NCBI RefSeq assembly: GCF_030684315.1
Contig: NC_081361.1
Location: forward strand, 67,563,553 to 67,627,552
Direction of reading: 5' to 3'
Length of the DNA stretch: 64,000 nt
Source: Stegostoma tigrinum
Lineage: Eukaryota
The notes under the pieces are model-generated. The model saw only the letters and a program-made list of their open reading frames with translations, was not told the DNA's origin and did not search any database. Both the position numbers and the translations under genes were made by a program. Position 1 is the first letter of the stretch. The number at the start of each line of letters is the position of its first letter. Positions 16,176 through 60,682 of this stretch are shown here, piece after piece.

Positions 16176-16686
16176 TTAACCAGCCATATCAATACCATGA
16201 CTCCAGGAGTAGAGTAGAAGCTGGGCTAGTGCTCCCTCAACTCTTGAAGTTTCTGCCATTCAGCAGATTCAAGTTTGCACTCTAACTCGTGGTTTGCACA
16301 AATGGGTGCAGTTGGAACAACACTGCATTAGGTTAATTAGCACAAGGATGGAACATGTTGGTTTGTTAGTGTACCAGGAATTATATTTTTTTTCTTAATT
16401 CCTGCAATACTAGTACACTCTGACTGTCATATGCACAATCAGCAGGAGACTGCAGTGACTCATCAGAGGACTTAAACTGCAGTTTTCTTCCTTGTGACCC
16501 CTATTACCCAAAGTTACAAACATTAGTGTTCTGCGAGTCTGGAGTTCTGAGTCTTCATGCTGATGTGAACACATTATTTATTCATCTTTGCTCAGATCAA
16601 GTTGAATAATTTCCTGTACTAACACAATTTCTGAGCACTGTCAAAAGGAGAATGCCGACCATTACTGTGCTAAGAACAGTTATAAT

Positions 16687-16911
16687 AGCGAGTTTTGAGA
16701 AGATTTGTAGCTCAGGTTGAGGTTCTGGATGTGAGTTTGCTCACTGAGCTGGAAGGTTAGTTTTCAGACGTTTCGTCACCATTCTAGGTAACATCATTAG
16801 TGAGCCTCCGATGAAGCTTCATCGGAGGCTCACTGATGATGTTACCTAGAATGGTGACGAAACGTCTGAAAACTAACCTTCCAGCTCAGCGAGCAAAGTC
16901 ACATCCAGAAC
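16687..16911. mobile_element. Palindromic PLE-end dimer (95-bp arms) with hammerhead motif and 14-bp target-site duplication
   Basis: Arms 16722-16816 and 16817-16911 are reverse complements with 3 mismatches, centred on aagctt. Direct repeat agaacagttataat at 16673-16686 and 16907-16920. Confidence 0.85.
16830..16869 (+). ncRNA. Minimal hammerhead ribozyme motif (PLE family 2)
   Basis: tca CTGATGA t gttacc tagaat ggtgac GAAA cGTC tga: intact core, 6-bp stem II, 3-bp stem I, palindromic ACGU. The mirror copy on the minus strand has CTAATGA. Confidence 0.72.
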
Positions 16912-17235
16912 AGTTATAATTAAATTTGGAAAGTTGTTAGACAGCAACAAGATCATGTAATGTACCAGTCACAGTTAGAGCTGAGCTAACTGATAGGCTG
17001 ATGAATGTACTGCTCTGTAATGGACCCAGAATATGCTGATGACTTTGCTTTCAGTGTCTGTTATGTTGAAATTGTGTTTTTTTTATTGCAGAGTAGTTAG
17101 TTTTGCAGCATTTAATTTGAAGTCCCAACAGAATTATATGAACAGGTTCACTCCTGACATTGCCATGCTTATCCCCCCAGTGATTGTATTGTATGGGCTT
17201 TAAAACCCATGTCCTTTCTTCTCCATGTTGAACAG

Positions 17236-17667
17236 GTATCATTGATGTCAGCATAAAAAATGTACAAGAGGTGATCCTTGCAGCGGATATGTTGCAGTTA
17301 ACTGAGATTGTGAACATGTGCAGTAATTTTTTAAAAGGGCAAGTTGATCCCTCAAACTGTGTTGGAATTTATCAATTTGCTGAGCAAATCGCATGTCATG
17401 ATCTCATGGAATTCAGTGAAAGCTACATTTATGTGCACTTCCTGGAGGTATGTAAAACTGAGGAATTTATTGGATTAGAAAAAGATCAACTTGTAAAGAT
17501 ATTAAAAAGTGAAGAACTCCACATTGAAGATGAATATCAAGTTTTCACAGCTGCTATGGAATGGGTGCTCAAAGACATGGGCAAAAGGAAAAAATATGTG
17601 ATTGAAATTCTGGATCCTGTTCGATTTCCTCTGCTGTCTTCACGAAGATTATTCAAGTATATTGAAG
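17236..17667 (+). CDS. IPP: IPP coding exon 2 (end of BTB and BACK domain)
   Basis: aacag|GT ATC ATT..; encodes NVQEVILAADMLQL...EQIACHDL...EDEYQVF...RFPLL...KYIEG; donor G|gtacga; 432 bp, phase 1-1. Confidence 0.96.
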
Positions 17668-18519
17668 GTACGACAGAATTTTGAGTATTTCATGTTCTTC
17701 AGGACAAAGTAGCATGCTCATTGCTAACGTGTGCATGACATTAGACATTTACTGCCTCCATCATAATGACATCTGTGTGTGCTATTTAGGAAGTACATTG
17801 CAGCAATTCATCCGGGGTGTTTTTTTTTTGCAACACCTTCCAAACCTATAACCTCTGCTACCTAGAGGATGAGGGCAATAGGTGCGTGGAAACACAACCA
17901 TCTGCAAGTTTCCATCAACCTGACTTGGAATTGTACCATAGTTTCTGCATTACATAAAATTTTGGAACTCCCTTTCTAATAGCACCACAGATAAACTTGC
18001 ACCACGTGGTCTGCAATATTTCAAGAGGGTGACTTAACATTGCTTCCTTGAGTGAAGTCACAGATTTTTAGAAACAATTTGTGCTTATGAACATTACTGG
18101 TTTGGTCAGCTCCTGTTATCGAGCCCTAATTTCTCTTTAGAAAGTGATGACCATAAGGTTTCGGACCAGAATTCGTTTGTTTGGCCCATCGAGTCTGACT
18201 GGTGGACCAATCACCCTGATGTGGTTCTCAACCCCATTCTCCTTCTGCCTTCCTGTAACCCTTTATCCCTGACCAAACAAGAACCTATCTATCTCTGTCT
18301 CAAAAGACTCAAGGACACTCCACAGTCCTCTGTGGCAATGTGTTCCACAAAGATCTGTCTCATGATTACATTTTTAAGATAAAAGGTAGGTATTAAATTA
18401 TCATAGAGCAGTGGTTTAGAGCAGTAAGACTGCTAATGCTGAGTTTATGGGAATGTGTGCTGTAATTGTTTTCTTGGGTATATTTTGGATCTGTAGATTA
18501 AGGTGCAGAGATGGCTTTT

Positions 18520-30949: not shown

Positions 30950-31896
30950 GTAGGTGTAGTTTATTAATAGTTATTTATTTAAAATAAATTTGTTTGAATG
31001 TTTTCATGATGGGAGCAGTAACATCAAGGAAGACAATTTCACAATTATCTTGAAACTGTGAAATGAGCATCTATTATGATTTTAGAGTTCCTTAGAAGAA
31101 CAGAAACTGTTTGCTATTCAGGTAGCGTACTCCGCTCATTGTCTGAGCAAATGATTAGAACAGGTGAAAAGAGTAGTTTGTTACATGATTGGGTGTGGGT
31201 GTACAGCTGAGATCTTACCCATCAGCTTATTGTGTTTACTGATTCAAAAAACATTAACATTCTCAATGCTGATTGGTTGACTGTGCAGAACGGATGGTAA
31301 TGTGCTTCTTGAATGAGGGCAGTAAGATGTCACTGATGAGGAGGCTGCTATCTTGGATGAATGCAGAGTTCAAAGATCTTTCTGGTATTTTATATGTAGT
31401 GTGTAATAGATGAGTCCAGATGTGGTAGTTGTGAAATTAATCGTGTTTGACAGCAGCTAATTTGTCTCAGTAACTCTTTTTAAAGCAGGTTCAACGTTCT
31501 TTGAGCCTAATGTGTGGGTTCTGAGCCTACAACCCAGCAATTTAATGAATACCATATGATTGTAGACTTATCCACATTAGAGAAACAAGTCTCAGCTTGA
31601 CCAATGAACAATGTGATCCTTCCTATTTTCCCAGTCTTCACTAAACATAACTGTTTTTCAACTACACCAGTTATTTCTCTAGATGACGGGCAAAGTACGC
31701 TACCAAAATATAAAGGCTATAACACTTTTTCTTTGGAACTCTTCTGAAGGAAACTACTGCTTTTAACTGCAAATTTTACATGCTATAACTACAAAATCAT
31801 CTTGCTCAGTGATTTACTTAGTTCTTGAAAAAAAGCCAAAATAAAACTGCAGCTGCTTTGGTAAGATTGCAGTGAGAAGACACTGACATTATCCAA

Positions 31897-32326
31897 GATA
31901 ACAATGTGTGGAGCTGGATGAACACAGCAGGCCAAACAGCATCTCAGGAGCACAAAAGCTGACGTTTTGGACCTAGACCCTTCATCAGAGAGGGAGATGG
32001 GGAGAGGGAACTGGAATAAATGGGGAGAGGGAACTGGAATAAATAGGGAGAGGGGGAGGCGGACCAAAGATGGAGAGAAAACAAGATAGGTAGAGAGGAG
32101 AGTATAGGTGGGGAGGTAGGGAGGGGATAGGTCAGTCCAGGGAAGATGTACAGGTCAAGGAGGTGGGATGAGGTGGTAGGAAGGGATGGGTGAGAGGAAG
32201 AACAGGTTAGGGAAGCAGAGACAGGCTGGGCTGGTTTTGGGATGCAGTGGGGGGAGGGGACTGCTGTGTTCATCCAGCTCCATACTTTGTTATCTTGGAT
32301 TCTCCAGCATCTGCAGTTCCCATTAT
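31897..32326. mobile_element. Inverted PLE-end dimer with 16-bp target-site duplication
   Basis: A long minus arm joined to a short plus arm; cactgacattatccaa at 31881-31896 and 32327-32342. Confidence 0.85.
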
Positions 32327-32979
32327 CACTGACATTATCCAATACTGTTGTAATTTTAAAAATCTTTTTGTCTATGGGATCCCCTGCTGAATGTGTTTCA
32401 GGTGATATTGGCATGGTCCTGACAAGGTTATGTGTTGGTTTCAGAGTGGAAAAGAAAAGTTGTAGATACAAGTTGGAAAAGCAGTGACTGAAAGACTGTT
32501 ATCCCAAAGACCTTTCAGGGTTGAGGTTGGGGTTTCTTCACAACTGAATTTTACCTATATCTGACTTCTGGTCTGCCCTCTCAGCCTCTCCAAATCAAAG
32601 ATGTTCCCAGCACAACTCTATCATCAGCTTTCTTCATGTGCTGATTTCAGGAAAGTGAGGCAAGAACACCAGAATCGTCTCTCCATTATCATTGGTATAA
32701 ATGGGATAGTCAATGATTGATTAAAATGTAAAGCCTCCCTCCATCCACTGAGGAACCTGCAGAAATTCCTTATTAACTGCGCACCTGCAGAGACCAAAGC
32801 ATGTTGCTGCTGGGAATTGAACATTTGACACATGACATTGTTCTGTCAGGGAACCAGAAACATTCTGTACTATAAGTTTTAGCTATCTTCTAAAGATATT
32901 TTGTGAATTAGTGAGCTGAAATTCTTTTTTTCTCCTTTTCTCTTTGCCACCCACCGGCACACATGCTGTAATTTTTCAG

Positions 32980-33204: not shown

Positions 33205-34156
33205 TAGTTGATGATTGCCTTCTGATATTTTAATCAAAAAGACTTTCAGATGAAGAAAATCTATATCTCGTTGAACTGTTATAAATCTCATTTGTGATAA
33301 ATATAAAGTTTGTAAGTTTGGACATCTACCATTGGGTTTAAAACCGATGACTCTGGCAGCGTTATGTCCAAACTACAAAAGATGTTTGTGTTACTTGTCT
33401 CAAATGTGTACATGTTTCTATAATTTCACTTGGAATAAACTTGATTTAACAAACTGTGAATTTCAACATGTCATTCAGTACTGTTGCTGTAACAGTTTTC
33501 CATTTGAAGTTGTGTGATTACCTAATTTCATGCAGGATTTTAAAATTCTCAGCAAATATAAAAAAAACCAAAAGGCCAAACACTTATTTGCGTAAAACCA
33601 GAGTTTTCCTTTCACTACAATGCAGTTTAGAAAACAAGAACTTGAAGCAACATACAGCATTTCGACAACGCACTTAAATTTATAACATTTTTGGGTTGTA
33701 TGTTCAGTGGAGTTTTTCTTGAAAGCAGCTGAGTGAATGTTTCTGAAGTATATGTGTAGTGACCCACGATGTTAGCCTTTTTAAGCGCTGTCCAGAGTTT
33801 ACACACTAACTGGATGGTTTTGCATAATGCTGATACTTCAGCATAAATGCCAGAAGTACAAAACATGTTGTCATCTGGAGGTTTTGAATTCCAAATAAAG
33901 CTGTATTTCGGTTTGTATGTATGAACTGAGATTCTTTTAGATACATATTTTCTTAATAAATATATTTCAGCACAATAAATTGCTTTGCTTGTTTGTACAG
34001 GTTCAGATATAAAATGACATTTCTGTTTCTCCATCATTCCACCATTGGCAACCAATACCGTATGGTTGGTTAAGGCTCAATCTCTGGAATTATCCCCTCA
34101 ACCTCCCTATTCTCTCCTTTTTAAAAGGCAATGCTTAAAGTGACACTTCTTGATCA

Positions 34157-34374
34157 TAAAGTGTGAAGCTGGATGAACACAGCAGGCCAAGCAGCATCTC
34201 AGGAGCACAAAGCTGACGTTTTGGGCCTAGACCCTTCATCAGAGACTCTGATGAAGGGTCTAGGCCCAAAACGTCAGCTTTTGTGCTCCTGAGATGCTGC
34301 TTGGCCTGCTGCGTTCATCCAGCTTCACTATTATCTTGGATTCTCCAGCATCTGCAGTTCCCATTAAGTCTGAT
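34157..34374. mobile_element. Near-perfect palindromic PLE-end dimer with 14-bp target-site duplication
   Basis: Centred on agagactct at 34245; hammerhead-like motifs at 34215-34242 (-) and 34248-34275 (+); acacttcttgatca at 34143-34156 and 34375-34388. Confidence 0.88.
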
Positions 34375-42586: not shown

Positions 42587-43275
42587 CTTACCACCTGCAA
42601 AAAAAATGAAATAACATGTCAAAGTATGCCTCTATGCTTGATTAGTTGCACAGCTAGAAAGAAGGTATGAGCATTTGAGAAATTTAGTCAGATCAAGTAG
42701 ATATAGTCTTTTAACCCTGAGAGTGAGTATTAATTTAAACTTTAGTCACATTTGGCTTGACAACAATTTGAATTTTGATATTTCAGTCTCCATTTAGCAA
42801 GGAAGAAATTGTTATATAATTCTAAGGATCGTAATTAACTTTGTGTATTTCGCCATTTTTAATTCTTATGCTCAAAATTCGTGTTTTGATGCCGGTTTGA
42901 AATAGCCATTTTGAACTGACCTCCTCGAATAAAATCCATAGAAGCGACATTGTAGGTGCGATCTACAAGTCATGTACTGAGAGAAATTCTACATTTGTCA
43001 ATTTAGCAAAAGTATAAGATTTTCTTCGTACTTCAGAGAAAAGCAACTCCACAAAATGCATGGCTGACTGGTGACAGCAGTTTTCGAATGTTAGCATAAG
43101 GTGGTACTTTAGAAAATACTGGGGCACATGTTATGCTTTTATGACGCCCATTCTCCCGAATGGCATTATTTTGCCTGCTATACACATACTATATTGAATG
43201 AGGAGAATTTCTTTTATTTCCAATCTGGATTCAATTCACAGATGTACAGCCCAAAACAATACCAAGGAAAAGGGT

Positions 43276-43420
43276 ATCGGAGATAATGGGAACTGCAGAT
43301 GCTGGAGAATTCCAAGATAATAAAATGTGAGGCTGGATGAACACAGCAGGCCAAGCAGCATCTCATGTGCTCCTGAGATGCTGCTTGGCCTGCTGTGTTC
43401 ATCCAGCCTCACATTTTATT
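43276..43420. mobile_element. Short inverted PLE-end dimer in TMEM69 intron 1
   Basis: Flanked by accaaggaaaa(g/t)ggt at 43261-43275 and 43421-43435. Confidence 0.8.
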
Positions 43421-43659
43421 ACCAAGGAAAATGGTGATGAGCGGCCTGTGCAGAACGAATCCGAACGTCCCCAGCTAAGACGCTGTTATAAAATGTACTT
43501 GGTTGCCAGGCTTTTGGTTGTCTGCCCTCATACATGCTCGAGATTTTTCAATAATGTTGAGGTTGCTAAGTGTTCCTGTGAAACGATCTCGATTAAAAAC
43601 AAAACGAAGGCCGTGACCCTGAGAGCGAACGCCGTGATTAAAGAGAAACGCGCCCTTAC

Positions 43660-43810: not shown

Positions 43811-43963
43811 CAGCTAGCTGAGTGCAGGGGGATGCCAAGCGGAAAGTATACAATGTGAGAGAGAGAGATAATGGGAACTGCAGATGCTGGAGATTCCAAG
43901 ATAATAAAATGTGAGGCTGGATGAACACAGCAGGCCAAGCAGCATCTCAGGAGCACAAAAGCT

Positions 43964-43991
43964 GACGTTTCGGGCCTAGACCCTTCATCAG
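43964..43991 (-). ncRNA. Minimal hammerhead ribozyme motif (PLE main family)
   Basis: Reverse complement reads CTGATGA a gggt ctag gccc GAAA cGTC; core intact. Confidence 0.68.
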
Positions 43992-45373
43992 AGAGGGGGA
44001 TGGGGGGAGGGAACTGGAATAAATAGGGAGAGAGGGGGAGGCGGACCGAAGATGGAGAAAAGAAGATAGGTGGAGAGAGTATAGGTGGGGAGGTAGGGAG
44101 GGGATAGGTCAGTCCAGGGAAGACGGACAGGTCAAGGAGGTGGGATGAGGTTAGTAGGTAGATGGGGGTGGGAGAAAGGAATGGGTGAGAGGAAGAACAA
44201 GTTAGGGAGGCAGAGACAGGTTGGACTGGTTTTGGGATGCAGTGGGTGGAGGGGAAGAGCTGGGCTGGTTGTGTGGTGCTGTGGGGGGAGGGGACGAACT
44301 GGGCTGGTTTAGGGATGCGGTGGGGGAAGGGGAGATTTTGAAACTGGTGAAGTCCACATTGATACCATTAGGCTGCAGGGTTCCCAGGCGGAATATGAGT
44401 TGCTGTTCCTGCAACCTACGGGTGGCATCATTGTGGCACTGCAGGAGGCCCATGATGGACATGTCATCTAAAGAATGGGAGGGGGAGTGGAAATGGTTTG
44501 CGACTGGGAGGTGCAGTTGTTTGTTGCGAACTGAGCGGAGGTGTTCTGCAAAGCGGTCCCTAAGCCTCCGCTTGGTTTCCCCAACGTAGAGGAAGCCACA
44601 CCGGGTACAGTGGATGCAGTATACCACATTGGCAGATGTGCAGGTGAACCTCTGCTTAATGTGGAATGTCATCTTGGGGCCTGGGATAGGGGTGAGGGAG
44701 GAGGTGTGGGGGCAAGTGTAGCATTTCCTGTGGTTGCAGGGGAAGGTGCCGGCTGTGGTGGGGTTGAAGGGCAGTGTGGAGCGAACAAGGGAGTCACGGA
44801 GAGAGTGGTCTCTCCGGAAAGCAGACAGGCGTGGGGATGGACAAATGTCTTGGGTGAGGGCTTCCTCTACATTGGGGAAACCAAGCGGAGGCTTGGGGAC
44901 TGCTTTGCAGAACACCTCCTCTCAGTTCGCAACAAACAGGTTGCAGGAACAGCAACTCATATTCCGCCTGGGAACCCTGCAGCCTAATGGTATCAATGTG
45001 GACTTCACCAGTTTCAAAATCTCCCCTTCCCCCACCGCATCCCTAAACCAGCCCAGTTCGTCCCCTCCCCCCACAGCACCACACAACCAGCCCAGCTCTT
45101 CCCTTCCACCCGCTGCATCCCAAAACCAGCCCAAACTGTCTCTGCCTCCCTAACTTGTTCTTCCTCTCACCCATCCCTTCCTCCCACCCCAAGCCGCACC
45201 CCCAGCTACCTACTAACCTCATCCCACCTCCTTGACCTGTCCGTCTTCCCTGGACTGACCTATCCCCTCCCTACCTCCCCACCTATACTCTCTCCACCTA
45301 TCTTCTTTTCTCTCCATCTTCGGTCCGCCTCCCCCTCCCTATTTATTCCAGAACCCTCACCCCATCCCCCTCT

Positions 45374-45401
45374 CTGATGAAGGGTCTAGGCCCGAAACGT
45401 C
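45374..45401 (+). ncRNA. Minimal hammerhead ribozyme motif (PLE main family)
   Basis: CTGATGA a gggt ctag gccc GAAA cGTC; core intact. Confidence 0.68.
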
Positions 45402-45858
45402 AGCTTTTGTGCTCCTGAGATGCTGCTTGGCCTGCTGTGTTCATCCAGCCTCACATTTTGTTGTCTTGGATTCTCCAGCATCTGCAGTTCCCATTATCTC
45501 GGAAAGTATACAATTCCCACTTTCAGGTTACATACAGAAAGTGCTGGCAACACAAACCAGATCTTCCAACATTTAAAAAAAAATCCGAATCGTTGAATAT
45601 TCCTTTTCCCGCCCCCCTTTTGTGAGCTGTTCCTATGCCAGACCTTCATTTTTATTTACATTGTAGATTTTTTTGCGTATTTTTCCCCCTTCCTTCCGAC
45701 CCATTTTCAGACTGACTGCCATGGAATTAAACGTGTAGCTGAAGAAATGATAAACAAGCGACTGGCATTGTCTTGTCTCTGAGGTAGAGTCACCACTGTC
45801 CTTCCTGCCAGATTCGTAGGGCTGCCCTTGCATGAGAGACACAACTGGTAGTGATTTT

Positions 45859-45979
45859 TAGAGATAATGGGAACTGCAGATGCTGGAGAATACAAGATAA
45901 CAAAGTGTGAAGCTGGATGAACACAGCAGGCCAAGCAGCATCTCAGGAGCACAAAAGCTGACATTTCGGGCCTAGACCC
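45859..45979 (-). mobile_element. Single PLE 3'-end insertion with 11-bp target-site duplication
   Basis: gtagtgatttt at 45848-45858 and 45980-45990. Confidence 0.8.
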
Positions 45980-47447
45980 GTAGTGATTTTAACCAGAGGG
46001 TCACCACGCTTCAGGCCAGGGCAGAGGTTGAGATGGAGTTCCTTATGGTAATATCAGCCAGTATGGAAGTTGAACCTGCACTGTTGGCACTACAGCATCG
46101 GAAACCACCTGTCCAGCAAATTAAATGTGACTGGTTTGAAAATCATACAGCAGGAGTCAAACTTAACTCCAATCTCTAAAGAACGTGAACTTGAAGCGAG
46201 AAAGCAGAAAAGGTGGTTGTTGGAACCAGCCTACTTCTTCCCTAGTCCGTGCATCAATATCATTCACTATAGCTGGCAAATGATTGATTTAATCAGCATT
46301 TTATTACAAGTATGGGGATCACTAGGCTGTAGCAGATAGGGTTGCGGAACCCTCAATAAACAACCTAGAGATATTATTTTCATGACACCACCTGCTGCAA
46401 GTTCTTCTCTCAGCCTCATCACCCTGACTTGGAAATATATCACAGCCCGTTCATCACCGTGAGGTCAATATCCTGGAATTCCCTCCCAAAGGACATTGTG
46501 GGGCAACCTACATAGACTACAGTTCACCACCACCTTCTCAAGGGCAACTCAGTGTGGGCAATAAATGCTGGCCAACCAGTGGCACCTGTGTCCCACCAGT
46601 GGATAAAACAATAATTGTGCCCTTGTAATTAAATGCAGGATCATTTTCAACTATTTTAGTTTTGAAGAATGCAAGAATTGGTGTGTGTAAAAAGATTTTT
46701 TGTTTTGTGTAATATGAAACATCTTTGACAAAACAATAAATCATGATAAAATCAATGAAACTTCAAAAGCTAAATGTTGATATGATTCAACACGATCAGC
46801 TGATACAGAACAACAGCTGTTATTGAGTAGTTACGTGATTATGGCGTGTATTTAACCTGTTGCATGTACGAATCTGCAGAGATTTTGAATGTTATTAAAT
46901 ATCAGTTCAATGTTGAATTATGTTTCAATAACAAATTGAGAAAGAAAACTATAATGATTTAAAAGTACGTTGCTTGCTAAAACAAAAGATAGTTTTGAAA
47001 AATGCGGAAGTTTGGAAATGCTGCAGCTCAGTTTTGTTTGATAGGGGTGGCCAGGTCTGAGTGACTGGGTCAGCCGTCCAGTTACTGAGGAGTTAGAGCA
47101 CATTTTAATTCCAGTAGCCTTCTCCTAGTTAACTATTAAGGAAGTCAGTGAAAACTCTCTCTGTTGTTACTATTGTTATTCTGCTTTGAGGACTTCAGAG
47201 GATTCCAGATGCTGGGTAATTGCCCATTGGAAATTACGACTTCCAAGACAATTCCTGGATATTTCATTGAAACATTCAAGCAGTCCCAACATGCATCCTT
47301 CAGGATACATCCAGTTTCTGTCTATCGGGAGATGAGTAGAGCTGGGCCATAGTCTCAATAGTGAAGTAATGTGTACAAGAAGGAATGTGTGTTACTTTTT
47401 TTTATACCAAAACACACCTTCCTCATTTGCTTGCACAACCTGGCATA

Positions 47448-48700: not shown

Positions 48701-51341
48701 TATCTTTCCAGGCAACAGTCTGCTATTCCTGCCTTGAAAACATTCAGTGACCCTGCTTCTACCACTGTTCCAAGTCACACAACACCCCTCCACCCCCAAA
48801 ATAACTTCTTATCTCAAACCTAATTTTGAAACAGTACTCCTTAGTTCTGCACTCCCATGCAAGAGGAATCATCCCTGCACTCATCCCTTGTCAAGACCAC
48901 TTAAGATTTTACACGCTTCAGTCAAATCACCTTCTAAACTCTTCTCTTCTAAATGCTTGTAGGAACAAGAACAACCTGTCTATTAGAGAACACACTGATT
49001 TCAGGTATCACTCAAGTCAACTTCCTTCCTCTAGTAAAAAATCCAAAACTGCACACACTATTCAAGATGTGATGTCATCAATGTTCTGTATAACTGTGGT
49101 GTAAATACATTGATGTTCAACTTCTGTCATAATTACGGATTGCATCAAGTTAGCCATCTTGATTATGTGCTGTACCTGGTCACTAACTTGTTGTCACCTG
49201 CATTACAACACCTAAATCCTGCACTACTTAAGAAGTATGCAGTTTTCTACATTTAAATATTACTGATTTTTCATTCTTCCTGACAAAATGAACAGTTGTT
49301 ATTTCTGCACATTGTACAACAACTGCCATATTTTTGCTTTCTCACTCAGACCTATCTGAATCATTCTGGAAATTCCTTATGTCTTCTTATGTATTTTCCT
49401 ATATTTGGTACAATCTGGGAAGTTAGCTGCTCTGCCTTCACTCTTCTCATATTCATCACAGGTGTAAATTGCAAAAAGTTGTAACCCCAACACACACTCC
49501 TGTATGATTCAACTTATCACAACCTGCCAATCAAGGATGTACTGTACATACTCCGTTTTCTGTCACCCAGATAGTCTTCCATCCACACTAATATGTCAAA
49601 CTTCGGTCCAAGTCAGTGAAATACAACGAACAAAACATGCTTTTAAAAGTCTACAGAGTTCCACTGATTTCCCATTGTATTACTGGTGAAAAAGTCAACA
49701 AGATGGAAAATAGTGGAGTTGTGGAGTAACACTCCTACAGAAATTTATTTACATATTATACAGAAACTCATTCTAAGTACAGTAGTGAGAAGCAATAAGA
49801 CAACAGCAGAAACAGAGTATTGGAGAAACAGGAAGAAATATTAGATTGAAAGATGATCTTGGATGTTGAGAGGGATTTGCAGATTTTTTTTAAATTCCAT
49901 TTTTGGGGTCAAAGAAAGATATTCCTGAACAGCAGGAAGTCCAGAACCAAGGATATTGGGTAGGTCATTTATGACTGAAATTAGAAATGGCTTCACCCAG
50001 AGAGTGGTAAACCTGTGGAGTTCTCTCCCACAAAAAGCAGTTGAGACCAAAACATTCAACATTTTCAAGCAAGAGTCAGATGTAGTCCTTAGAATTAAAG
50101 GGTATGAAGAGTAAGCAGGAACAAGTTGCTGAGTTGGATGAAAAAACAGAGTCTTGGAGAAACTCAGCAGGTCTGGCAGCATCTCGAAATGTTAACTCTT
50201 TACACTCCTGTGACCTTTGGCTCGAAACGTGAACTGTTTTTCTCTCCCCAGATGCTGGCAGACTGGCTATCTTCCTCCAGCGCTTACTATGTTGTCTCAA
50301 CGAGTTCAGTGGTCAGCCATTTTCATATTGAGTGACGCAACGGGATCCGTGGGCCGAATGGACTAGTCTTCCTAATTTCTATCCATTATAAAATGTCGAG
50401 TTCACAAATATGTCATAGATATCAGGTGCTTAACATCCAATCCATGAGAAATCAAAGGTTAGTGAAACAGAAATATAAGCACAAATGAAAATGATGCCGG
50501 TATCCAGTCTGTAGCAATGCATGCCTCCGCTCACAATTCTCATTCAGGGGCCAGAACAATTTTCAAGCGCCGAACTGGCATGACCAAAGGGAAGGAGTCT
50601 GAGAACTACTGACTACCAAGTTTTAAAAATCTCGTACAAAAAAAATGTTATCCCCGGAAAGCAAAGTACTTGAAATACCCAAGTCAGGTGGCATCTGTGC
50701 AGACAGAAAAATTAACAAACATCAGGTCGTGGCCTTTCATTAGCAAGATGCATTGTTAGAATGGAGCAAAACTTTTGATAAGGTCAGTGGCTTCTCGATA
50801 ATAAGTTGTGAGAAAGCATCGGCCATTGACTGGTGCAAAACGTGAGCAGAAAATACCTCCTGATGCCTCAAGACACCGTGCAGCTCACGTCCACTCAACC
50901 CGCACCACATTGTCCCTTGCTTAAATACAAACAAAAACTGCTCAACAGGTCAGGAAGCATCAGAGAGAATAGGAACGGCATTTCTGATGAAGGGTCTCGG
51001 CCTGAAATGTCAGCTTTCCTGCTCCTGAGATGCTGCTTGGCATTCTGTGTTCATCCAGCTCCACACTTCGTTATCTGAGATCAGGAAGCATGGTGTGGGC
51101 AGGAGCGCGAATTAGCGTTTCCGTTTGATCACCCCCTCAACAGAACTGCAGTCAGCCTCTTCCTAACAACAATCTGGGGATAGAGCGGTCGGTTAGGGGT
51201 AAGTGGGTAAACCGTTCAGTACAAAGTACTGGGATTTGGCTGTCCCTGAGTGCATCGCTCAGTGTTCTCCTTCCGTGTTTGGTGTTATTTCCAAGCTGCT
51301 GCAGCAGCGAAACTGAGAGAGTGGGAAAACAAACACACCTC

Positions 51342-52439
51342 GATAATGAAATGAGGCTGGATGAACACAGCAGGCCAAGCAGCATCTCAGGAGCACAAAA
51401 GCTGACGTTTCGGGCCTAGACCCTTCATCAGAGAGGGGGATGGGGTGAGGGCTCTGGAATAAATAGGGAGAGAGGGGGAGGCGGACCGAAGATGGAGAGA
51501 AAAGATAGGTGGAGAGAGTATAGGTGGGGAGGTAGGGAGGGGATAGGTCAGTCCAGGGAAGACAGACAGGTCAAGGAGGTGGGATGAGGTTAGTAGGTAG
51601 ATGGGGGTGCGGCTTGGGGTGGGAGAAAGGGATGGGTGAGAGGAAGAACAGGTTAGGGAGGCAGAGACAGGTTGGACTGGTTTTGGGATGCAGTGGGTGG
51701 AGGGGAAGAGCTGGGCTGGTTGTGTGGTGCAGTGGGGGGAGGGGACGAACTGGGCTGGTTTAGGGATGCGGTTGGGGAAGGGGAGATTTTGAAGCTGGTG
51801 AAGTCCACATTGATACCATTGGGCTGCAGGGTTCCCAAGCGGAATATGAGTTGCTGTTCCTGCAACCTTCGGGTGGCATCTAGCAACTCATATTCCGCTT
51901 GGGAACCCTGCAGCCCAATGGTATCAATGTAGACTTCCCCAGCTTCAAAATCTCCCCTTCCCCCACCGCATCCCAAAACCAGCCCAGTTCGTCCCCTCTC
52001 CCCACTGCACCACACAACCAGCCCAGCTCTTCCCCTCCACCCACTGCATCCCAAAACCAGTCCAACCTGTCTCTGCCTCCCTAACCTGTTCTTCCTCTCA
52101 CCCATCCCTTCCTCCCATCCCAAGCCGCACCCCCATCTACCTACTAACCTCATCCCACCTCCTTGACCTGTCCGTCTTCCCTGGACTGACCTATCCCCTC
52201 CCTACCTCCCCACCTATACTCTCCTCTCCACCTATCTTCTCCTCTATCCATCTTTGGTCCGCCTCCCCCTCTCCCTATTTATTCCAGTTCCCTCTCCCCA
52301 TCCCTCTCTCTGATGAAGGATCTAGGCCCGAAACGTCAGCTTTTGTGCTCCTGAGATGCTGCTTGGCCTGCTGTGTTCATCCAGCTTCACACTTTATTAT
52401 CTTGGAATTCTCCAGCATCTGCAGTTCCTATTATCACTG
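51342..52439. mobile_element. Young inverted PLE dimer with 15-bp target-site duplication
   Basis: Arms of about 540 bp meet near 51880; hammerhead motifs at 51404-51431 (-) and 52310-52337 (+); aaacaaacacacctc at 51327-51341 and 52440-52454. Confidence 0.9.
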
Positions 52440-52479
52440 AAACAAACACACCTCCCCGGGATTCGGATGATTGGCACCC

Positions 52480-52824: not shown

Positions 52825-54535
52825 GTAGGCAGCCAATGTTATTGCCCTGCAGCCTGCTTTGTCGCCATCTTGGTCCCAGTGTTTGTTGTTATTATCATTA
52901 TCGTGGTTTTAGCAGCCTCTTTGCATCCCCCTTTCATCACTTATTATTGTTGGTGTTTACGGACCAAAAGGAAAATATTCACCGCGTATTTTTGTTCTCT
53001 AACTTCTTTCTCAAATGGGAAAGGTTTAGAATGTTTGGTCAAGTTTTTTTTGTCTGTCGTGACATTAGTCTCTGGCCTTATCTTGCGTTTTGCATTTGTT
53101 AATCCACTGCGTATGTACTTATGCACCACACCGTGCACTGTTTTTATGATTTTGATTGAAGCAATACGAAAAGTTTCAACTCTGCGTGGCAGACGTGGAC
53201 TTATGAAGTTTTCTTTTGACGTTGGATGTGCTCACGGCTTGTTTGTTAGGTGTGTATTGTTAATGTGTCGTTTTTGGAAAGTCAGGAAACTCCCCTTCGC
53301 CTTCCTTTTTTATTCCCCACAACAGTGTGAAATAAGATGAATAACACGCTTGACACGAGGCTGTCGCTTCTCGTTTGTTTGTATGGCCACCCATAGCTGC
53401 CATTTCTGGTTCTGTACAATATTACTTCGCACCAAAACTACACTTCCCTCATGTGCAAAGATTTCTGAAGCGTTTCAACTGTAATGCTTTAGAGTTGTCA
53501 TAATTCACTGGCAACACAGTAGTGCTGTTTTGTATTTTCTTGGATTGAGTTTTTTTAAAAATAATTCAATCAAGTTGAATTTTTAATGTAGCTCTTGATT
53601 TTTAGCAACAGTTTATATGGGAGCTGGCAGAAGAGTTGTTTCTGTGTCAAAACACTTTCAGTTTGATTGTCGGAATGTTATATCTTCCCCATGCCAGTGG
53701 ATGTTTTTAAACTTGTTGATTCAAATGATGTGGGTTTTTTATTTCATTCTAGGAGGAATAATTTTTTATTTCCCTTTTTTGGCTGAGGAGAGTGCAAGCA
53801 CCTCATTCATTTATAGATAATAAAGTATACTTCCAACACATCTGTTAATTTTCAGACCAATTTAGATGCATTGTAACCTGTTCTGTAGGCTTAAAGAGCA
53901 GTCGTTCTTCTAATTGATTGTTAACGATATCATCTCTACACTAAATTTGCCTTGATTTTCTTTGCCTTCGAAGTTACTTGCACAAGTCTGAAAAGGTTTG
54001 CTTCACATTGGGGTATGCAGAAATACATTTCCGTGTCACAACTGCTCTTTTTATTTGCCCGACCTGATATTGCCCAGGTGTGGAAGCAAACGCTGCTGTT
54101 GGCATTTTTGCAGAAACAGCAGCATCTTTGAACTGCAACTGGGATGTAATGAAATTATGAGGAAGCTAACAGCCTTTTGAATTTTCTCATAAATGCTTTT
54201 AGAATGTGAATAATATTTGCATATAATGCATACACCTGGCAGAACTCCTGTTATATAATCTACATTTAACGTAGAAGTGCCACAAAGCAGAGGATTTGAG
54301 GTTACGCTTGCTGGGTATAGTGTGCTGGAATCTGTGTTTTGGTGAACCTTTGATACAGCATGTGCAATGGTTGTCTGAATAGATGTGTACTATCCTGTTG
54401 GATGCTCTGACTGCTGTTTCAAAGCTTGTATTTTTTGACTCAAACCCTATCTGAAAGAAAGATTGAAAGTAGCTGAAACCAGATCAAAGACATGATCATC
54501 TGAACTCAGATCATCCAACCAACCTGAAGAAAGTT

Positions 54536-54633
54536 CTCTCTGATGAAGGGCCTAGGCCCGAAACGTCAGCTTTTGTGCTCCTGAGATGCTGCTGGGCCTG
54601 CTGTGTTCATCCAGCCTCACATTTTATTATCTA
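54536..54633 (+). mobile_element. Minimal PLE-end insertion beginning at the hammerhead (54540-54567), with 11-bp target-site duplication
   Basis: tgaagaaagtt at 54525-54535 and 54634-54644; CTGATGAagggcctaggcccGAAAcgtc is intact. Confidence 0.82.
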
Positions 54634-55499
54634 TGAAGAAAGTTAAGACTGGATTGAGGACCTGGCACTAGACAGATGAAAGTTTGTTGCAGATGTTTCT
54701 GTCACTTAAAAGATCAATCTTCTCTACTCATTCTGAATGATATTGACACTGCAGTCTCAGCGAACTCAGACATGCAGAGTGCAGGATTACCACTTAAGTT
54801 TCAAATGAAGATAATACTGATAGATCCACACTATTGTCCACATTGTTATGAACAAACTATTGTGTGGTTCTGGAAGAGTACATCATTTTGTTGAAAGTAA
54901 CTTCGTTGGGTAAATTGGGGATCTGCTGTTCAATGAAAATAGGTGATAAAATCTTTGAAAAATTTCTACCAGAAGATTATCAGAGCACTGATGGATTTTG
55001 TGGCTGACATTAGTACCATGTATGCAGCACAGTTTGTTTGTACATCCTTAATATTAATCTCTATGTTAAAGTTTTGCAGTCTGTACTTTCCAAAGGGTTG
55101 CATAAAACAGTGTGACCCTTCAGTTTGCAAACGTCTGGTGTGTGCTAATGATTTGGCAATTAGATAATATTTGCTGGATAATCTTGAGTGCAAGGGATTA
55201 AGTAGAATTTAAACAATTTATGGTGGTCAAATCAGGCTCAGTGTGGCCCCTCTGTATGTATACGAAAGTGTGTAAATTAATAAAGAAGTCCTGTTCTTTG
55301 CAGACGCTAAGTACATGTACACACACTGCTCCTGTTTCAGCTTGGTAAAATAGGTGACAGGTATTTGTTGGTTCACTTCTTGTCATTTATTTATGGATTA
55401 GCATCAATCTGGCTATACCTTCCAAACGCAGCCTGACAGTTAACTGTCACTGAGCATTAATGGGTACATACTCTGGCAAACCAGCCTTCCGTCCATTGA

Positions 55500-55713
55500 G
55501 AGATAACAAGGTGCAGATTTGGATGAACACAGCAGGCCAAGCAGCAGCATAGGAGCAGAAAAGCTGACGTTTCGGGCCAAGACCCTCCTTCAGAAAGGGC
55601 CGAGGCCTGAAATGTCAGCTTTCCTGCTCCTATGATGTTGCTTGGCCTGCTGCATTCATCCAACTCTACACCTGTTATCTCAGATTCTCCAGCATCTGCA
55701 GTTTCTACTATCT
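55500..55713. mobile_element. Older inverted PLE-end dimer with 14-bp target-site duplication
   Basis: cttcc(g/a)tccattga at 55486-55499 and 55714-55727. Confidence 0.78.
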
Positions 55714-55789
55714 CTTCCATCCATTGACTCCATTTATATTTCTTGCTGCCTCAGGAAAGCAACCAAAATAATCCAAGATCTCTGTCAAG

Positions 55790-56680
55790 TAGGCAAACAG
55801 GAGGCTGGAAGAACACAGCAAGCCAGGCAGCATCTGGAGGAAAGGGAAAAGTCAACATTTTGGGTAATACCCTTCTTCAGGACTAGATGTGGGGGTAGGG
55901 GGAGCTGCAGATAGAGGTGGCAAAATGGTGGTCATGGGTGGACACAGGTAGTAGGTACAACCTAATTGGTTGCTGGGGAGGATGAATCTGGTTGTTAGCT
56001 GGAAGGGAGGGTTGGCAGGTGAAATGGAAGGGAGGAGGCAGGGCTGGAAAGGGAGTTGGGTGATTGGTGGGAAAGATATTTGAAGTTAGCAAACTGTGTT
56101 AAGTCCTTGGAGTTTTGGGTGCCCTGGAGGAAAATAGGGTGTTGTTCCTCAAATTTGCAATCTGATCCACTGTGGCACTGGAAGAGACTGAAGATGGATA
56201 TGTTGAGGGGGAGTGTGGGGTTGGGAGGAGTTGGAGTTGAAATGGGCAGTGACCGGGAGGTTAGGCTGGCCGTGGTGGAGCAGGTGAAGATGCTCAGCGA
56301 AACAGTCATCTAGCCTGTGTTTGGTCTCACCGATTGTAGAGCAGACCACAACGGGAGCACCAGATGCTGGTAGACTAAGTTGGAGGAGATACAGGTGAAA
56401 CTCTGTCTCACCTGCAAGGACTGTTTGGGGCCCTGGGCTGCGGTGAGGGAGTTGGTATGTGGGTAGGTATGTGTTGCCTCTTTTACAGTTACGGGGAAGG
56501 TACCAGGGTCGTTGGAGTGGTTGGGGGGTGGGGGTGGTGCGGGAGGAAGTGTGGCGTGAGCTCAAGAGTGGTGAAGGGAAGGGTCCCTGTGGAAGGCAGA
56601 GAGGTGAGTGGAGTGGAGGATATTCTGGGTGATGGGGTCTAATTGAAGTTGGTGGAAGTGTTTTGAAGATGATATATTTG
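55790..56680 (-). mobile_element. Old PLE fragment (GIY-YIG)
   Basis: Minus-strand IGETKHRLDDCFAEHL..LPVTAHFNS and FEEQHPIFLQG. Confidence 0.75.
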
Positions 56681-57997: not shown

Positions 57998-58336
57998 TCA
58001 TAGAATCGCTACAGTGTGGAAGCAGGCCATCCATCCCATAAAGTCCACGGTGACCGTTTGAAGAGCACCCCACCTGCTATCCCTTAACTGTGCATTCCCC
58101 ATGGCTAACCCACCGAGCTTGCACATTGCTGACACAACAGCCAACTAAGCTTGGACAATCTTCCGAACCTGCACATCTTCGGACTGTGGGAGGAAACCAG
58201 AGCACCTGGAGGAAACCCACGCAGTATTGGGGAGAAAATGCAAACTCCACATGGACAGTCACCCAAGGCTGGAATCAAGCCTGAGTCCCAGGCACTGTCA
58301 AGCAGCACTGCTAACCACTGAGCCACCATGCTGCCC
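57998..58336 (-). mobile_element. HE1-like SINE
   Basis: The reverse complement begins ggcagcatggtggctcagtggttagcagtgctgc; same family as the other copies. Confidence 0.75.
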
Positions 58337-59063
58337 AGTCATAACTGTTTTCGACCTGTGTACAACAAAAGATGTTTGTATCTATCCTGTTGAAGGGAGA
58401 AATAATGTACTTCAGTTGTAATCAAGAAAAGCTGAGATCAAGGTTTTAATGTTTAAGCCAGGGATGATGATAGGGACAAAACAGTATTCAAGGAAACTGA
58501 TCAGCTGATTGTCTCAGCAGTAATGAGTTGAGCAAATGTGATTGTCTCTTTGGAATGGGGTTGATGGTGCAGATATAGTCTTCTAGAATTGAGCCTTGAC
58601 AACATGATAACATTTGATTGAGTGTGATATTAGGGACCCGAGAGAACTTAATTCAGCAGGAAAACTTTCCACTAGTTGGAAATCTACCTCGCATTAAGTA
58701 AAATGTCCTGCAATAACCGCACTCAATCGCTACTCAGGTAGTGTCTGTGACGCAGTCATATTCAACTACTTGTCAGTGTGCTTTCTTGCATCATGGATTC
58801 GTAAGGTAGAATATAGTGCTTTTGATTGCATAGTGTCTGGTACTATTTGTATTTCTTCAGATAGAGTATTTCACTATGCATATATGGGGCATCATCTCGA
58901 CAATATTCAGACATAGGCTAATGTAACAGGCAAGGTTCGCTCAAATTGTTTCCATCCTTCAGTCGAATTACATTTAAAATGTGCACCAAGTTCAAGGAAC
59001 AAGAATGGGGGTGAGGAAATAAAACAGCTCAGGTTCCAAACATATCCTTTTGCAGGGAGAAAC

Positions 59064-59569
59064 ACAAAAAGGTTCTTAAATAAGAAATGACAAGTAATGT
59101 GATCACACAGCTCATAATTTAAAATAGTCTACCTCTTTCCACCTTCCCGTCTCTCAAACTCAGTGGGCCAGCTTTAGGAACTGGCTGAACCTACCTGTGT
59201 CTTCCTTCACTGAATAACATTGTGATATGGTGTAAGAATTTAAATTCACGCCACTTCTCTGGTTGCACTACATCCTTCCACCTCTGTGTCTGGCTTGAGT
59301 GTAACAGACTAGTGAGCAGCAGCTTCTCAGACATGCGCAGTCTGTGCAGGCAGGCATACTGTTTGCAAAGAGGGAATGTGCTCAAAACCATCAGGACGCA
59401 GTATCCCTCTGGGCAGTGCTGCTTTAAGGGGAAAGTCGGTAGGCTCAGCCAGTTGCTAACGTTGGCCCATGACTTTGGGAGAGAAGGGAAGGTGGAAAGA
59501 GGCAGACCATTTCACTTAAGAGCAATGTTATCACATTACTTGTCATTTCTTATTTAGGAACCTTGTTGT
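59064..59569. repeat. Foldback / MITE-like element with about 130-bp imperfect terminal inverted repeats
   Basis: aaggttcttaaataagaaatgacaagtaatgtgat...ctctttccaccttccc...aactggctgaacctacc (59069-59196) is mirrored by ggtaggctcagccagtt...gggaaggtggaaagag...atcacattacttgtcatttcttatttaggaacctt (59438-59564). Confidence 0.8.
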
Positions 59570-59853
59570 ATTTCTTCCTGCAAAAGGATATATGGCAGAA
59601 GTTCAGGGCAATACTTCTTGGAATATTGTGTGCCAATTTGGGCAGCAGCATCGAGGGGAAAGTAAATGACCGGCAATGACCAAGGACAGTGAGTTGAACC
59701 ATTAGCTCCTTGATGTTTAACACAGGGATGTGATGGGCTAAATGCCTGCTTCCACACGATAGGGATTCTGTGATGACTATTGCTGAAATCCTCACCAGCA
59801 CATACTTGGTGTTACTGTTCAGCGAAAATGGTGTTGAGCTACCTGGTATAAAT

Positions 59854-60055
59854 TGTTTGAGATAGTTGGAACTGCAGATGCTGGAGAATCTGAGATAACA
59901 AGGTGTAGAGCTGGATGAACGTAGCAGGCTGAGCAGGAAAGGTGACATTTCGGGCCTGGACCCTCCTTCAGAAAAATGGCCTTGGCCCAAAATGTCAGCT
60001 TTCCTGCTCCTCTGATGCTGCTTGGCCTGCTGCATTCATCCAGCTCTACACCTTT
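59854..60055. mobile_element. Older inverted PLE-end dimer with 16-bp target-site duplication
   Basis: gctacctggtataaat at 59838-59853 and 60056-60071. Confidence 0.8.
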
Positions 60056-60682
60056 GCTACCTGGTATAAATACTGTGTTTACAAGAACAGGATTAGAAAT
60101 TTGAGGCAAGTAACTCTCCTGATTCACCAAGGCCCAAGTTAAGAGCGTAATGAAACACTTCACATTTGTCTGGAAGAGTACAACTCTAATCACAGTCCAG
60201 CTCAATATCGCCTTTTTAAAGAACAAGCACCCTGTTTGATTGGCGCAACCATCTCTCACCTTCAACATTCATTCCCAGCATCCTTCCAACTGTTCCTTCC
60301 AAAATCCACTGCAGCAGTTCACCAAGCCTCACTTCATAGTACCTTCCAGCTGTTTTTCCCACCGTCTAGAAGAACAACAGTAAATGCAGAACGCTACCAA
60401 CTGTTATTTTCCGTACAGGCTACACATCATACTTAGAAGTATATTGTTGTTCCTTTTACAATCATTGGCTGAAAAACCTGCAGTTTCCTGACCAAGGATA
60501 GTTGGGAGTAGATGGCTGACCTTGCCTTCTATGCAAGAGTGAAAGAAAGCAATTTTTGTCCTGCTGAGCTGGTACTTATCCAAGTGCTTGGTCACTGTTT
60601 CTCGTATATCAGTTGTGGAGAATTAATGTTTTGGCTGAATTCATGTACCAACATTTCAGGAGGCTTCTTGTGTTTGTATTCT

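Follow-up and report, generated by a model that had tools for sequence, protein, structure and literature searches.

Most Penelope-like elements (PLEs) in the window, by which we mean the whole 64-kb stretch of DNA analysed here, are pairs of 3' ends joined head-to-head, and these pairs are probably ordinary insertions of endonuclease-bearing PLEs formed by priming from both nicks of the target site. We catalogued 21 PLE loci, of which 12 are head-to-head pairs within a single duplication. Two more head-to-head pairs (6099 and 62450) have no detectable duplication; one duplication encloses both arms in 12 of the 14, and pairs are the majority class here (12-14 of 21 loci, small numbers that all come from one 64-kb window). 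The duplication is 14-16 bp long in 11 of the 12 bracketed pairs, the exception being the 10 bp of the pair at 4367. No full-length PLE copy (pseudo-LTR, ORF, pseudo-LTR) was found within the window.

Nine of the bracketed pairs had been pointed out by an earlier sequence-only reading. All nine of its direct repeats are present where it placed them, and at each locus the left arm is a minus-strand 3' end and the right arm a plus-strand 3' end, as it described. Only the repeat given as 43261/43421 needs adjusting, as it starts at 43260/43420 and is 16 bp long with one mismatch, not 15. Three bracketed pairs were added (9595/9703, 10006/10150 and 50947/51078). The nine named pairs, the three additional ones and two single-arm copies for comparison are as follows:

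4367..5696, family C pair: 10 bp duplication at 4367-4376 and 5687-5696; untailed minus-strand left arm (about 4377-4416) and tailed plus-strand right arm (4417-5686) containing a putative endonuclease remnant (4505-4678), a nested SINE-like repeat (4884-5191) and a putative hammerhead core (5566)
16673..16920, family B (putatively Poseidon-type) pair: exact 14 bp duplication; tailed minus-strand left arm (16687-16817) and untailed plus-strand right arm (16816-16906), the latter with a 5-nt target match
31881..32342, family A pair: 16 bp duplication, exact; left arm 31897-32260, minus, untailed, 6-nt target match; right arm about 32260-32326, plus, tailed
34143..34388, family A pair: exact 14 bp duplication; untailed minus-strand left arm (34157-34245) and tailed plus-strand right arm (34246-34374)
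43260..43435, family A pair: 16 bp duplication with one mismatch at 43260-43275 and 43420-43435; tailed minus-strand left arm (43276-43365) and untailed plus-strand right arm (43366-43419)
43840..45514, longest family A pair: 15 bp duplication, exact; tailed minus-strand left arm (43855-44860) encoding a GIY-YIG endonuclease with its Cys linker; plus-strand right arm (44861-45499), also tailed, about 100 nt internally deleted at 44938
51327..52454, family A pair: exact 15 bp duplication; untailed minus-strand left arm (51342-51880) and tailed plus-strand right arm (51882-52439), with one extra base between them
55486..55727, older family A subfamily pair: 14 bp duplication with one mismatch; untailed minus-strand left arm (55500-55599) and tailed plus-strand right arm (55595-55713); joint overlap about 4-5 nt
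59838..60071, older family A subfamily pair: exact 16 bp duplication; tailed minus-strand left arm (59854-59972) and untailed plus-strand right arm (about 59973-60055); divergence prevents placing of the inner joint
9595..9718, additional family A pair: duplication 9595-9610 / 9703-9718, 16 bp with two mismatches; minus-strand left arm (9607-9626) and tailed plus-strand right arm (9628-9706)
10006..10163, additional family A pair: duplication 10006-10019 / 10150-10163, 14 bp with two mismatches; untailed minus-strand left arm (about 10023-10105) and plus-strand right arm (10108-10149) that is tail only
50947..51091, additional cryptic family A pair: duplication 50947-50960 / 51078-51091, 14 bp, one mismatch; minus-strand left arm (50961-50982) reduced to about 20 nt from the end of the tail; untailed plus-strand right arm (50983-51077) with a 4-nt target match
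45848..45990, minus, single-arm family A copy: element 45860-45979, tailed; duplication 11 bp exact (13 with one mismatch)
54525..54644, plus, single-arm family A copy: element 54536-54633, untailed; duplication 11 bp exact

The named direct repeats far exceed chance expectation. Element ends were set by homology for this comparison, independently of the repeat. The exact repeat is 10-16 bp long in eight of the nine named loci (55486 has 8 bp exact and 14 with one mismatch). Among 1000 random position pairs no exact repeat exceeded 9 bp, and among 72 mismatched pairings none exceeded 10. When one mismatch is allowed, the named repeats measure, in order of position, 10 (4367), 14, 16, 14, 16, 15, 15, 14 and 16 bp; the random maximum was 12 and one of the 72 mismatched pairings reached 16 (59824 with 43427). 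At two mismatches, the setting of the 10006 pair, 14 bp was reached by 7 of 1000 random pairs. Both single-arm copies with a duplication have 11 bp exact, and no duplication was found around the single-arm copies at 7386, 23035, 41146, 47448 and 55801. A search of the window for empty sites with the 12 rebuilt targets returned one paralogue, for the 9595 pair, whose host is another repeat: the copy at 12494-12642 has no insertion and misses about 11 nt of the target, which makes it only partly informative as an empty site.

Judged by their sequences, the elements appear to be Neptune-type and Poseidon-type PLEs with hammerhead cores, and the pairs to be mostly Neptune-type. Seven of the named loci belong to family A, with young and old subfamilies, one to family B (16673) and one to family C (4367); the claim of three PLE families stands only if 4367 is counted. 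Endonuclease-bearing PLEs are defined by a C-terminal GIY-YIG domain with two cysteines between the motifs, the CCHH type (PMC8557442). In family A, Pfam matches GIY-YIG at 44205-44921 of the minus strand (E 1.7e-4; 22.3 bits, slightly below the 22.6 cut-off), and the CxxC and downstream histidines of the CCHH type are discernible in the translation. CX4CxxC precedes GIY-YIG there and in a whale shark relative (P0002), the Neptune linker between RT and endonuclease being CX2-5CxxC. Family A is assigned putatively to the Neptune clade from this linker motif, which is common to Nematis and Naiad, together with domain order. All paired copies are 5'-truncated and end before the reverse transcriptase (RT). 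RT-like sequence lies upstream in relatives of 88% identity (zebra shark P0001 and whale shark P0002), remoter matches carry the RT domain (Pfam: PF00078), and an older related copy at 23300-24400 has RT remnants.

The family B arms match 41053-41135 at 76-79%, which is the end of a decayed ORF with an RT-like piece (39786-40061) and an endonuclease-like piece (40708-40842). The best Atlas match of family B is GIY-YIG (score 0.95); there was no Pfam match at 0.01 and no Cys linker in the broken translation, and its placement in the Penelope/Poseidon clade, whose C-terminal GIY-YIG is of the CCHH type and lacks a Cys linker, is our own, provisional reading. Family C has a weak GIY-YIG profile match at 4505-4678 (E 9e-4 within the window), with no tblastn match of this remnant at 0.01, and the hammerhead-like core at 5566. 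Canonical PLEs have a minimal hammerhead ribozyme motif in the pseudo-LTR. Scanning for a hammerhead pattern of core, stem II and GAAA, which identifies candidates at motif level, gave 20 matches: PLE 3' ends, belonging to four families, account for 14, and the other 6 lie outside them. Rfam reported no hammerhead at E up to 0.1. All seven Rfam matches were sub-threshold ones to microRNA models on the palindromes and were rejected. ARAGORN found no tRNA gene within the SINE-like repeat, and a search by motifs for a host gene nearby was negative.

The 3' ends fall into two classes. With few aberrant ones, 26 family A ends pile up at two positions about 35-40 nt apart, and the same is seen in families B and C. 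None of five folded 3' ends was significantly stable (z +0.6 to -1.4), so we claim no stem-loop at the start sites. One arm is tailed and the other untailed in eight of the nine named pairs (binomial p 0.02 at 50:50); 43840 is the only named pair with tails on both arms. The left arm adjoins the outer duplication in 12 of 12 bracketed pairs. In the 9595 pair the left arm begins some 28 nt further upstream than the proximal site normally used, and it matches the target by 4 nt. In 10 of the 12 bracketed pairs the arms overlap and begin at fixed sites. The other two, 10006 and 50947, each have one tail-only arm that does not overlap its partner.

Single outer junctions often show 1-6 nt of pairing with the target. 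Over 20 scored outer junctions, primer-template matching adds up to 40 nt, compared with a null mean of 14 (0 of 20000 simulations). The distal reference past the tail is one copy (47448) that partly overlaps the test set, so that this figure is less clean than that of the 11 untailed junctions alone, where matching is 23 versus 7.6 in the null (p 0.0004). Four further outer junctions had no reference and were excluded from the score. Matching is similar at left and right ends, as expected if both ends act as primers. No clear nick-site motif was found in 24 inferred nicks beyond T at -1 and +1 (11 of 24 each).

Seven of 14 inner joints are blunt or have 1-2 extra bases, three overlap by 2-5 nt and four could not be scored. 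At 34143 the joint is blunt and a candidate hammerhead core lies 2-3 nt downstream of both inner ends, and at 43260 it is blunt and 46 nt of arm sequence are identical. The arms at 16673 share the same terminal base and overlap by 2 nt, giving a loop-free palindrome. Arm lengths had been said to vary independently, which does not hold, as the inner ends usually coincide: in element coordinates they are no more than 25 nt apart in five of seven named family A pairs (permutation p 0.005) and in six of ten when the additional pairs are included (p 0.009), while the rank correlation is not significant (p 0.19). This agreement is partly due to common stopping points.

The arms of the two long pairs, 43840 and 51327, can be compared as to their templates. 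In both, the coding part is alike and the 3' UTRs carry different family haplotypes, each of which recurs in other copies. Over 205 nt of coding sequence, each long pair has its own two arms as closest relatives in the tree (bootstrap 87). All four inner branches of the 3' UTR tree were left open, so the 3' UTR discordance is read from individual haplotype blocks.

We propose that a PLE protein, probably dimeric, would nick both target strands about 14-16 nt apart and thereby leave two 3' overhangs. Each 3'-OH would then prime reverse transcription at one of two internal start sites flanking the 35-40 nt tail, usually with one primer per start site and often aided by 1-6 nt of pairing. Both cDNAs would terminate prematurely, in many cases at the hammerhead's 5' edge. 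They would then be joined end to end, blunt or through a few matching bases, and fill-in would yield outward-facing arms inside one duplication. Layout, duplication lengths, the two end classes, junction matches and haplotype differences are seen in the sequence; we infer the stagger, the simultaneous priming, the dimer and the end-joining. Cleavage and extension of both strands and the use of two start sites have been shown in vitro for an anole Poseidon element. A single event with priming from both 3'-OH ends of a staggered cut, as the sequence-only reading had proposed, is the best reading because of the abutting left arms, the junction matching, the mostly blunt joints and the activity of purified Poseidon protein. 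Its location of priming near the RNA 3' end has to be given up, as there are two start sites about 35-40 nt apart, which in the anole element are internal to the RNA. The points set against our explanation are the small numbers from one window, the pairs at 6099 and 62450 without duplication, the two tails of 43840, the 10 bp duplication of 4367, the incomplete target in the empty paralogue and the absence of a nick-site motif beyond T at -1 and +1.

That one RNA served both nicks in all cases, as in L1 twin priming, with the rear polymerase displacing the first cDNA and the haplotype differences arising by later gene conversion from other copies, we consider somewhat unlikely. It would account for the presence of one tail per pair, the two small-gap tail-only arms, the correlated inner ends and the near-identity of short arms, and the sister relationship of the coding parts agrees with it. 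On the other hand, it requires independent 3' UTR conversion in both long pairs, and it sits poorly with the two tails of 43840 and with 4367, whose tailed arm greatly exceeds the untailed arm in length. One-RNA twin priming is a particular form of priming from both nicks and no alternative to it, and the data suggest that both one-RNA and two-RNA templating occur. A wider proposal, which we regard as unlikely, is that priming from both nicks is the default route of these PLEs with a fixed 14-16 nt staggered cut, the arms being taken from two pseudo-LTR copies. The source would be a dimer with two RNAs, or one terminally redundant RNA primed at its 5' and 3' pseudo-LTR, and one cDNA would transfer to the shared coding region near the stop codon, like retroviral strong-stop transfer. 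In the one-RNA variant the 5' pseudo-LTR always has the tail after it, which would give the one-tail rule. If true, this reading would explain why arms differ in the 3' UTR and yet match in the ORF.

Self-priming, in which one cDNA or antisense template folds back and copies the second arm, was proposed for rotifer PLEs from palindromes at the inverted junction (PMC3846280). Here the loop-free palindrome at 16673 and the nearly loop-free one at 34143, the correlation of inner ends and the almost identical short arms (0/46, 1/82 and 3/90 differences) would suit it. We nevertheless find it quite improbable, as a copied arm should match its template, whereas the long pairs differ at multi-base haplotypes that recur in other copies. 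The copy of a tailed arm cannot extend past its template upstream, whereas the untailed arm reaches further upstream in 8 of 11 bracketed mixed pairs (two opposite, one tie; a trend that is not significant and is used solely against fold-back), and copying an untailed arm cannot add a tail. Furthermore, the majority of inner joints have no complementarity for seeding, and the tail-only arms of 10006 and 50947 have no sequence in common with their partners. Two independent insertions, the second landing in opposite orientation at the 5' end of the first, could produce the different 3' UTR haplotypes, and the anole endonuclease cuts DNA of its own element (PMC11167929). This is very improbable, since there is no second duplication at any inner joint, the left arm always abuts the outer duplication, the orientation is always head-to-head, and neither the one-tail rule nor the shared coding alleles would be expected. 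Palindromes are difficult to assemble (PMC8557442), but to a fold-back artefact of the assembly we give next to no probability: arms differ at up to 9 of 78 positions, only one arm has a tail, spacers are non-palindromic, and both flanks are unique and carry the direct repeat, where fold-back chimeras would mirror the flank as well.

The paired layout itself is already published for PLEs, with inverted arms inside a duplication and a tail of 30-40 nt on one arm as hallmarks (PMC3846280, PMC8557442, PMC2377424). In the canonical PLEs (Penelope of Drosophila virilis, Pen2/Pen2a/Pen3a of Adineta vaga, Naiad and others), as here, a 5'-truncated inverted copy is joined head-to-head, one duplication surrounds the unit and the tail is often at one end only. 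The duplication in A. vaga is 8-10 bp and one empty allelic site was shown (PMC2377424, PMC3846280, PMC8557442). The shark window is different in that both arms are short truncated 3' ends, the duplication is mostly 14-16 bp and pairs are the majority. Its data favour priming from both nicks, which fits the junctions better than the self-priming proposed for canonical PLEs (PMC3846280).

The closest biochemical system is PAc, the Poseidon of Anolis carolinensis. The purified protein cleaves and extends both strands in vitro, uses the same two internal start sites on both strands and is a predicted dimer (PMC11167929). Start sites spaced by the tail, and a hammerhead about 90-150 nt upstream of the ends, are shared with the shark elements. 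The text consulted reports initiation without homology to the cleaved DNA, whereas modest matching (at most 6 nt) is enriched here; it leaves the steps after initiation without validation and derives neither inverted pairs nor duplication length from the in vitro activity. Moreover, PAc is a Poseidon, while the pairs here appear mostly Neptune-type.

The version with two RNAs has already been named dual priming for L1, where two RNAs prime the nicks (Meyer et al. 2010, PMC2837659). Outward-facing 3' ends in one duplication and an inner joint without microhomology are common to both. For L1 it was a speculation that the authors could not separate from twin priming, based on 39 rare loci and poly(A)-primed; the layout here is common and its long arms permit comparison of templates. 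Different 3' UTR haplotypes in both long pairs may reflect two RNAs, with the shared coding alleles and possible later conversion to be borne in mind. L1 twin priming likewise has both nicks priming within one duplication, and a correlation of arm lengths was also reported for it (PMC2837659; bioRxiv 10.1101/2024.08.27.596794). There, the second primer pairs with the same RNA wherever an internal site happens to suit it, and there is hardly any overlap between the arms (same sources). Most pairs here differ from this in their fixed start sites and overlapping arms. The contrast with L1 twin priming drawn by the earlier reading is nevertheless too sharp, given the existing name for the two-RNA version in L1 and given 10006 and 50947, the only pairs that consist of two non-overlapping fragments as one-RNA twin priming would give; they resemble an L1 inversion with a small internal deletion.

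The origin of inverted and tandem PLE structures is called an open question in PMC8557442. In the literature covered, which did not extend to older subscription papers, we found no paper in which PLE inverted pairs are explained by twin or dual priming, and none that combines shark, Penelope, Neptune and retrotransposon. The window adds the 14-16 bp duplications, the one-tail rule, the microhomology excess, the mostly blunt joints, the tail-only arms and the arms with different 3' UTR haplotypes. If the pseudo-LTR proposal is true, dual priming as put forward for L1 would here have its first evidence from sequence. As the window shows, short PLE pairs with clear boundaries are numerous in shark genomes, and junction counts could decide between self-priming, one-RNA and two-RNA templating. 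The predictions for the anole assay are that the stagger is fixed, that each strand uses one start site and that primer pairing is short.

Back-to-back pairs are the usual way in which PLEs have landed in this stretch, and their junctions suggest that copying begins on both cut strands together. For annotators, it is of note that such pairs resemble MITEs or microRNA hairpins.

The nine direct repeats that the sequence-only reading had reported around paired Penelope-like elements (PLEs) are all present, at the loci starting at 4367, 16673, 31881, 34143, 43260, 43840, 51327, 55486 and 59838. Each pair consists of a minus-strand left arm and a plus-strand right arm with the 3' ends outward. The repeat first placed at 43261/43421 exists, but its start and length had to be corrected to 16 bp from 43260/43420 with one mismatch allowed. 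Element ends were set by homology and the longest flanking repeat was sought afterwards. The longest exact repeat measured 10-16 bp in 8 of the 9 loci, compared with a maximum of 9 for 1000 random pairs and of 10 for 72 mismatched control pairings. With one mismatch allowed, the random-pair maximum was 12, and 16 was reached by one of the 72 mismatched pairings. Two different target sites, 59824-59839 and 43427-43442, are alike at 15 of 16 bases adjoining their duplications, which is probably chance and possibly an old repeat common to both.

Every fragment of families A-C, and of the older elements related to them, was entered in a catalogue of 21 loci, a total that omits the fourth-family fragments at 246 and 9337. 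Head-to-head pairs with a duplication make up 12 loci (the nine above plus 9595, 10006 and 50947), and two further pairs, 6099 and 62450, have none. The remaining loci are single arms: 45848 and 54525, each within a duplication of 11 bp, and five others without one. The duplication is 14-16 bp long in 11 of the 12 bracketed pairs and 10 bp in the family C pair. Tail-to-tail pairs within one common duplication were not found in this catalogue. The 9595 pair sits in one copy of a repeat of about 150 nt (9519-9784); the other copy (12494-12642) is empty, but about 11 nt of the target are missing there.

The loci are a real and well-bounded set of PLE insertions, whose layout is already known: excerpts of PMC3846280, PMC8557442 and PMC2377424 describe it as typical that copies are inverted and 5'-truncated, that one side bears a tail and that a duplication flanks the unit, and an empty allelic site has been demonstrated in a rotifer. 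Their value is in the regularities at the junctions, which make a step of PLE integration acknowledged as open testable by counting in a single genome or with an existing in vitro system.

The coding part of family A, the main repeat family, has a CX4CxxC linker and, inside its GIY-YIG domain, two cysteines; by its motifs this is a Neptune-type layout as described in part of PMC8557442. The family A peptide is 88% identical to zebra shark and whale shark proteins, which makes a carpet shark the probable host. Family B, at 16673, is similar to the 3' end of a decayed ORF in which RT-like and GIY-YIG-like pieces are seen and no linker is visible; it is read as Poseidon-type. For family C, at 4367, a weak match suggests a remnant of the endonuclease. 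The decayed ORF is one of three older remnants, around which no duplication is detectable.

Long single-arm PLE remnants of greater age, with pieces of the RT, the endonuclease or both
23035-24470, minus strand
39500-41146, plus strand (the decayed ORF)
55801-56700, minus strand

By pattern scan, families A, B and C all have a minimal hammerhead core that lies upstream of the 3' end, and 14 of the 20 matches of the scan are in PLE ends; Rfam detected no hammerhead. A fourth PLE-like family is represented by two minus-strand 3' ends, 246-372 and 9337-9446, which are 79% alike; one of them has a hammerhead-like core.

The outer 3' termini pile up at a proximal and a distal position, which are separated by about 35-40 nt. 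Of the 9 named pairs, 8 (p 0.02 at 50:50) combine an arm that stops at the proximal position with a tailed arm, which carries the extra sequence; both arms are tailed in the 43840 pair, and in no named pair do both lack the tail. Among single-arm copies, either position occurs. The element sequence frequently extends into the start of the duplication: the match is 1 nt or longer at 16 and 2 nt or longer at 11 of the 20 junctions scored (out of 24; four lacking a usable reference were left out). Summed over the scored junctions the matches amount to 40 nt, where the null gives a mean of 14; for the 11 untailed or upstream junctions alone, for which the reference is independent, they amount to 23 against 7.6 (p 0.0004). 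Matches occur on both sides, as predicted for two primers. The left arm of the 43840 pair has, at its tailed end (43855-43867), a short dinucleotide expansion ahead of the duplication, like slippage at initiation.

Among the 14 inner joints, seven are blunt or have 1-2 extra bases, three overlap by 2-5 nt and four are not scorable. Arm lengths had been described as varying independently, which does not hold: of the 7 named family A pairs, 5 have inner ends no more than 25 nt apart (p 0.005), and at 16673 the inner ends are identical. This agreement is partly explained by stopping points common to arms. In family A, ten arms or single copies terminate no more than about 10 nt from the hammerhead core start, and four ends or jump points group 430-470 nt into the reference. 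At 10006 and 50947 the tailed arm is tail only and does not overlap its partner. The right arm of the 43840 pair skips about 100 nt forward in the element at 44859-44938, with only 1 nt of overlap, which suggests a template jump in reverse transcription. In a single case, at 6099-6202, a minus-strand arm starts at the first base past the predicted hammerhead cleavage site, as if copied from self-cleaved RNA; next to it comes a 12-nt piece on the plus strand, and the locus has no duplication.

Within a pair, short arms hardly differ; the two long pairs, 43840 and 51327, are mosaics. In each long pair the two arms are sisters over the final 205 bases of coding sequence (5/5 informative sites; bootstrap 87), whereas the 3' UTR groups by insertion in 0/4 informative events and each arm has multi-base blocks common to other loci (Fisher p 0.008, for a boundary picked post hoc, five long copies only and a UTR tree with no inner branch resolved). 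A 3-nt indel and a 3-substitution block are common to the right arm of 51327 (51882) and the older copies 31897 and 7386, and an 8-nt block joins the right arm of 43840 past its jump (44938) with the left arm of 51327 (51342), and 43855 with 47448. Such arms could result from two templates, from strand transfer on a terminally redundant RNA, or from gene conversion at a later time. That paired arms derive from two templates we consider rather doubtful. Two-RNA dual priming was put forward for L1 and, in the portion of PMC2837659 consulted, left unvalidated; no paper applying dual priming to PLEs was found in the literature searched.

The best reading, and in our judgement a fairly probable one, is a staggered double nick with priming from both 3'-OH ends, early stops and joining of the cDNAs. 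The target would be nicked on both strands with a stagger of about 14-16 nt, both 3'-OH ends would prime reverse transcription at the two start sites, both cDNAs would stop early, and end-joining would unite them. According to excerpts of PMC11167929, the anole Poseidon protein cleaves and extends both strands, two internal start sites set the tail, and a dimer is predicted. The same excerpts report no primer homology in vitro, and part of PMC8557442 describes PLE duplications as variable; both count against this reading, as do the two pairs without duplication and the small numbers. The explanation published in PMC3846280, as excerpted, is that self-priming makes the second arm, and the loop-free palindrome at 16673 fits it. 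The discordant haplotypes of the arms, the tail-only arms and the blunt joints do not. Two independent insertions per site fit poorly, and so do assembly artefacts.

The window is vertebrate DNA, with genes and introns; the two genes below are presumably IPP and TMEM69, respectively.

Genes in the window
8868, 17232 and 30665, plus strand, exons of a BTB-BACK-Kelch gene
37353-38171, minus strand, DUF3429 ORF

Other repeats are also present. At 10614-11030 on the minus strand a Pfam rve match to an integrase core, weak and below cut-off (E 5.5e-4), may mark a decayed LTR-retrotransposon-like remnant. Two related repeats of 730-740 nt (15423-16164 and 20965-21691) give LINE-like translated pieces and are presumably CR1-type. 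A SINE-like repeat of about 310-340 nt, whose head we assume to be tRNA-derived and in which ARAGORN found no tRNA, has four copies (4884-5191, nested inside the 4367 element, 13976-14320, 48384-48698 and 57998-58331). The element at 59042-59591, with no PLE match or hammerhead, is MITE-like, with inverted arms of 154 nt that are about 88% complementary where they match best, a 240 nt spacer and TA-rich ends.
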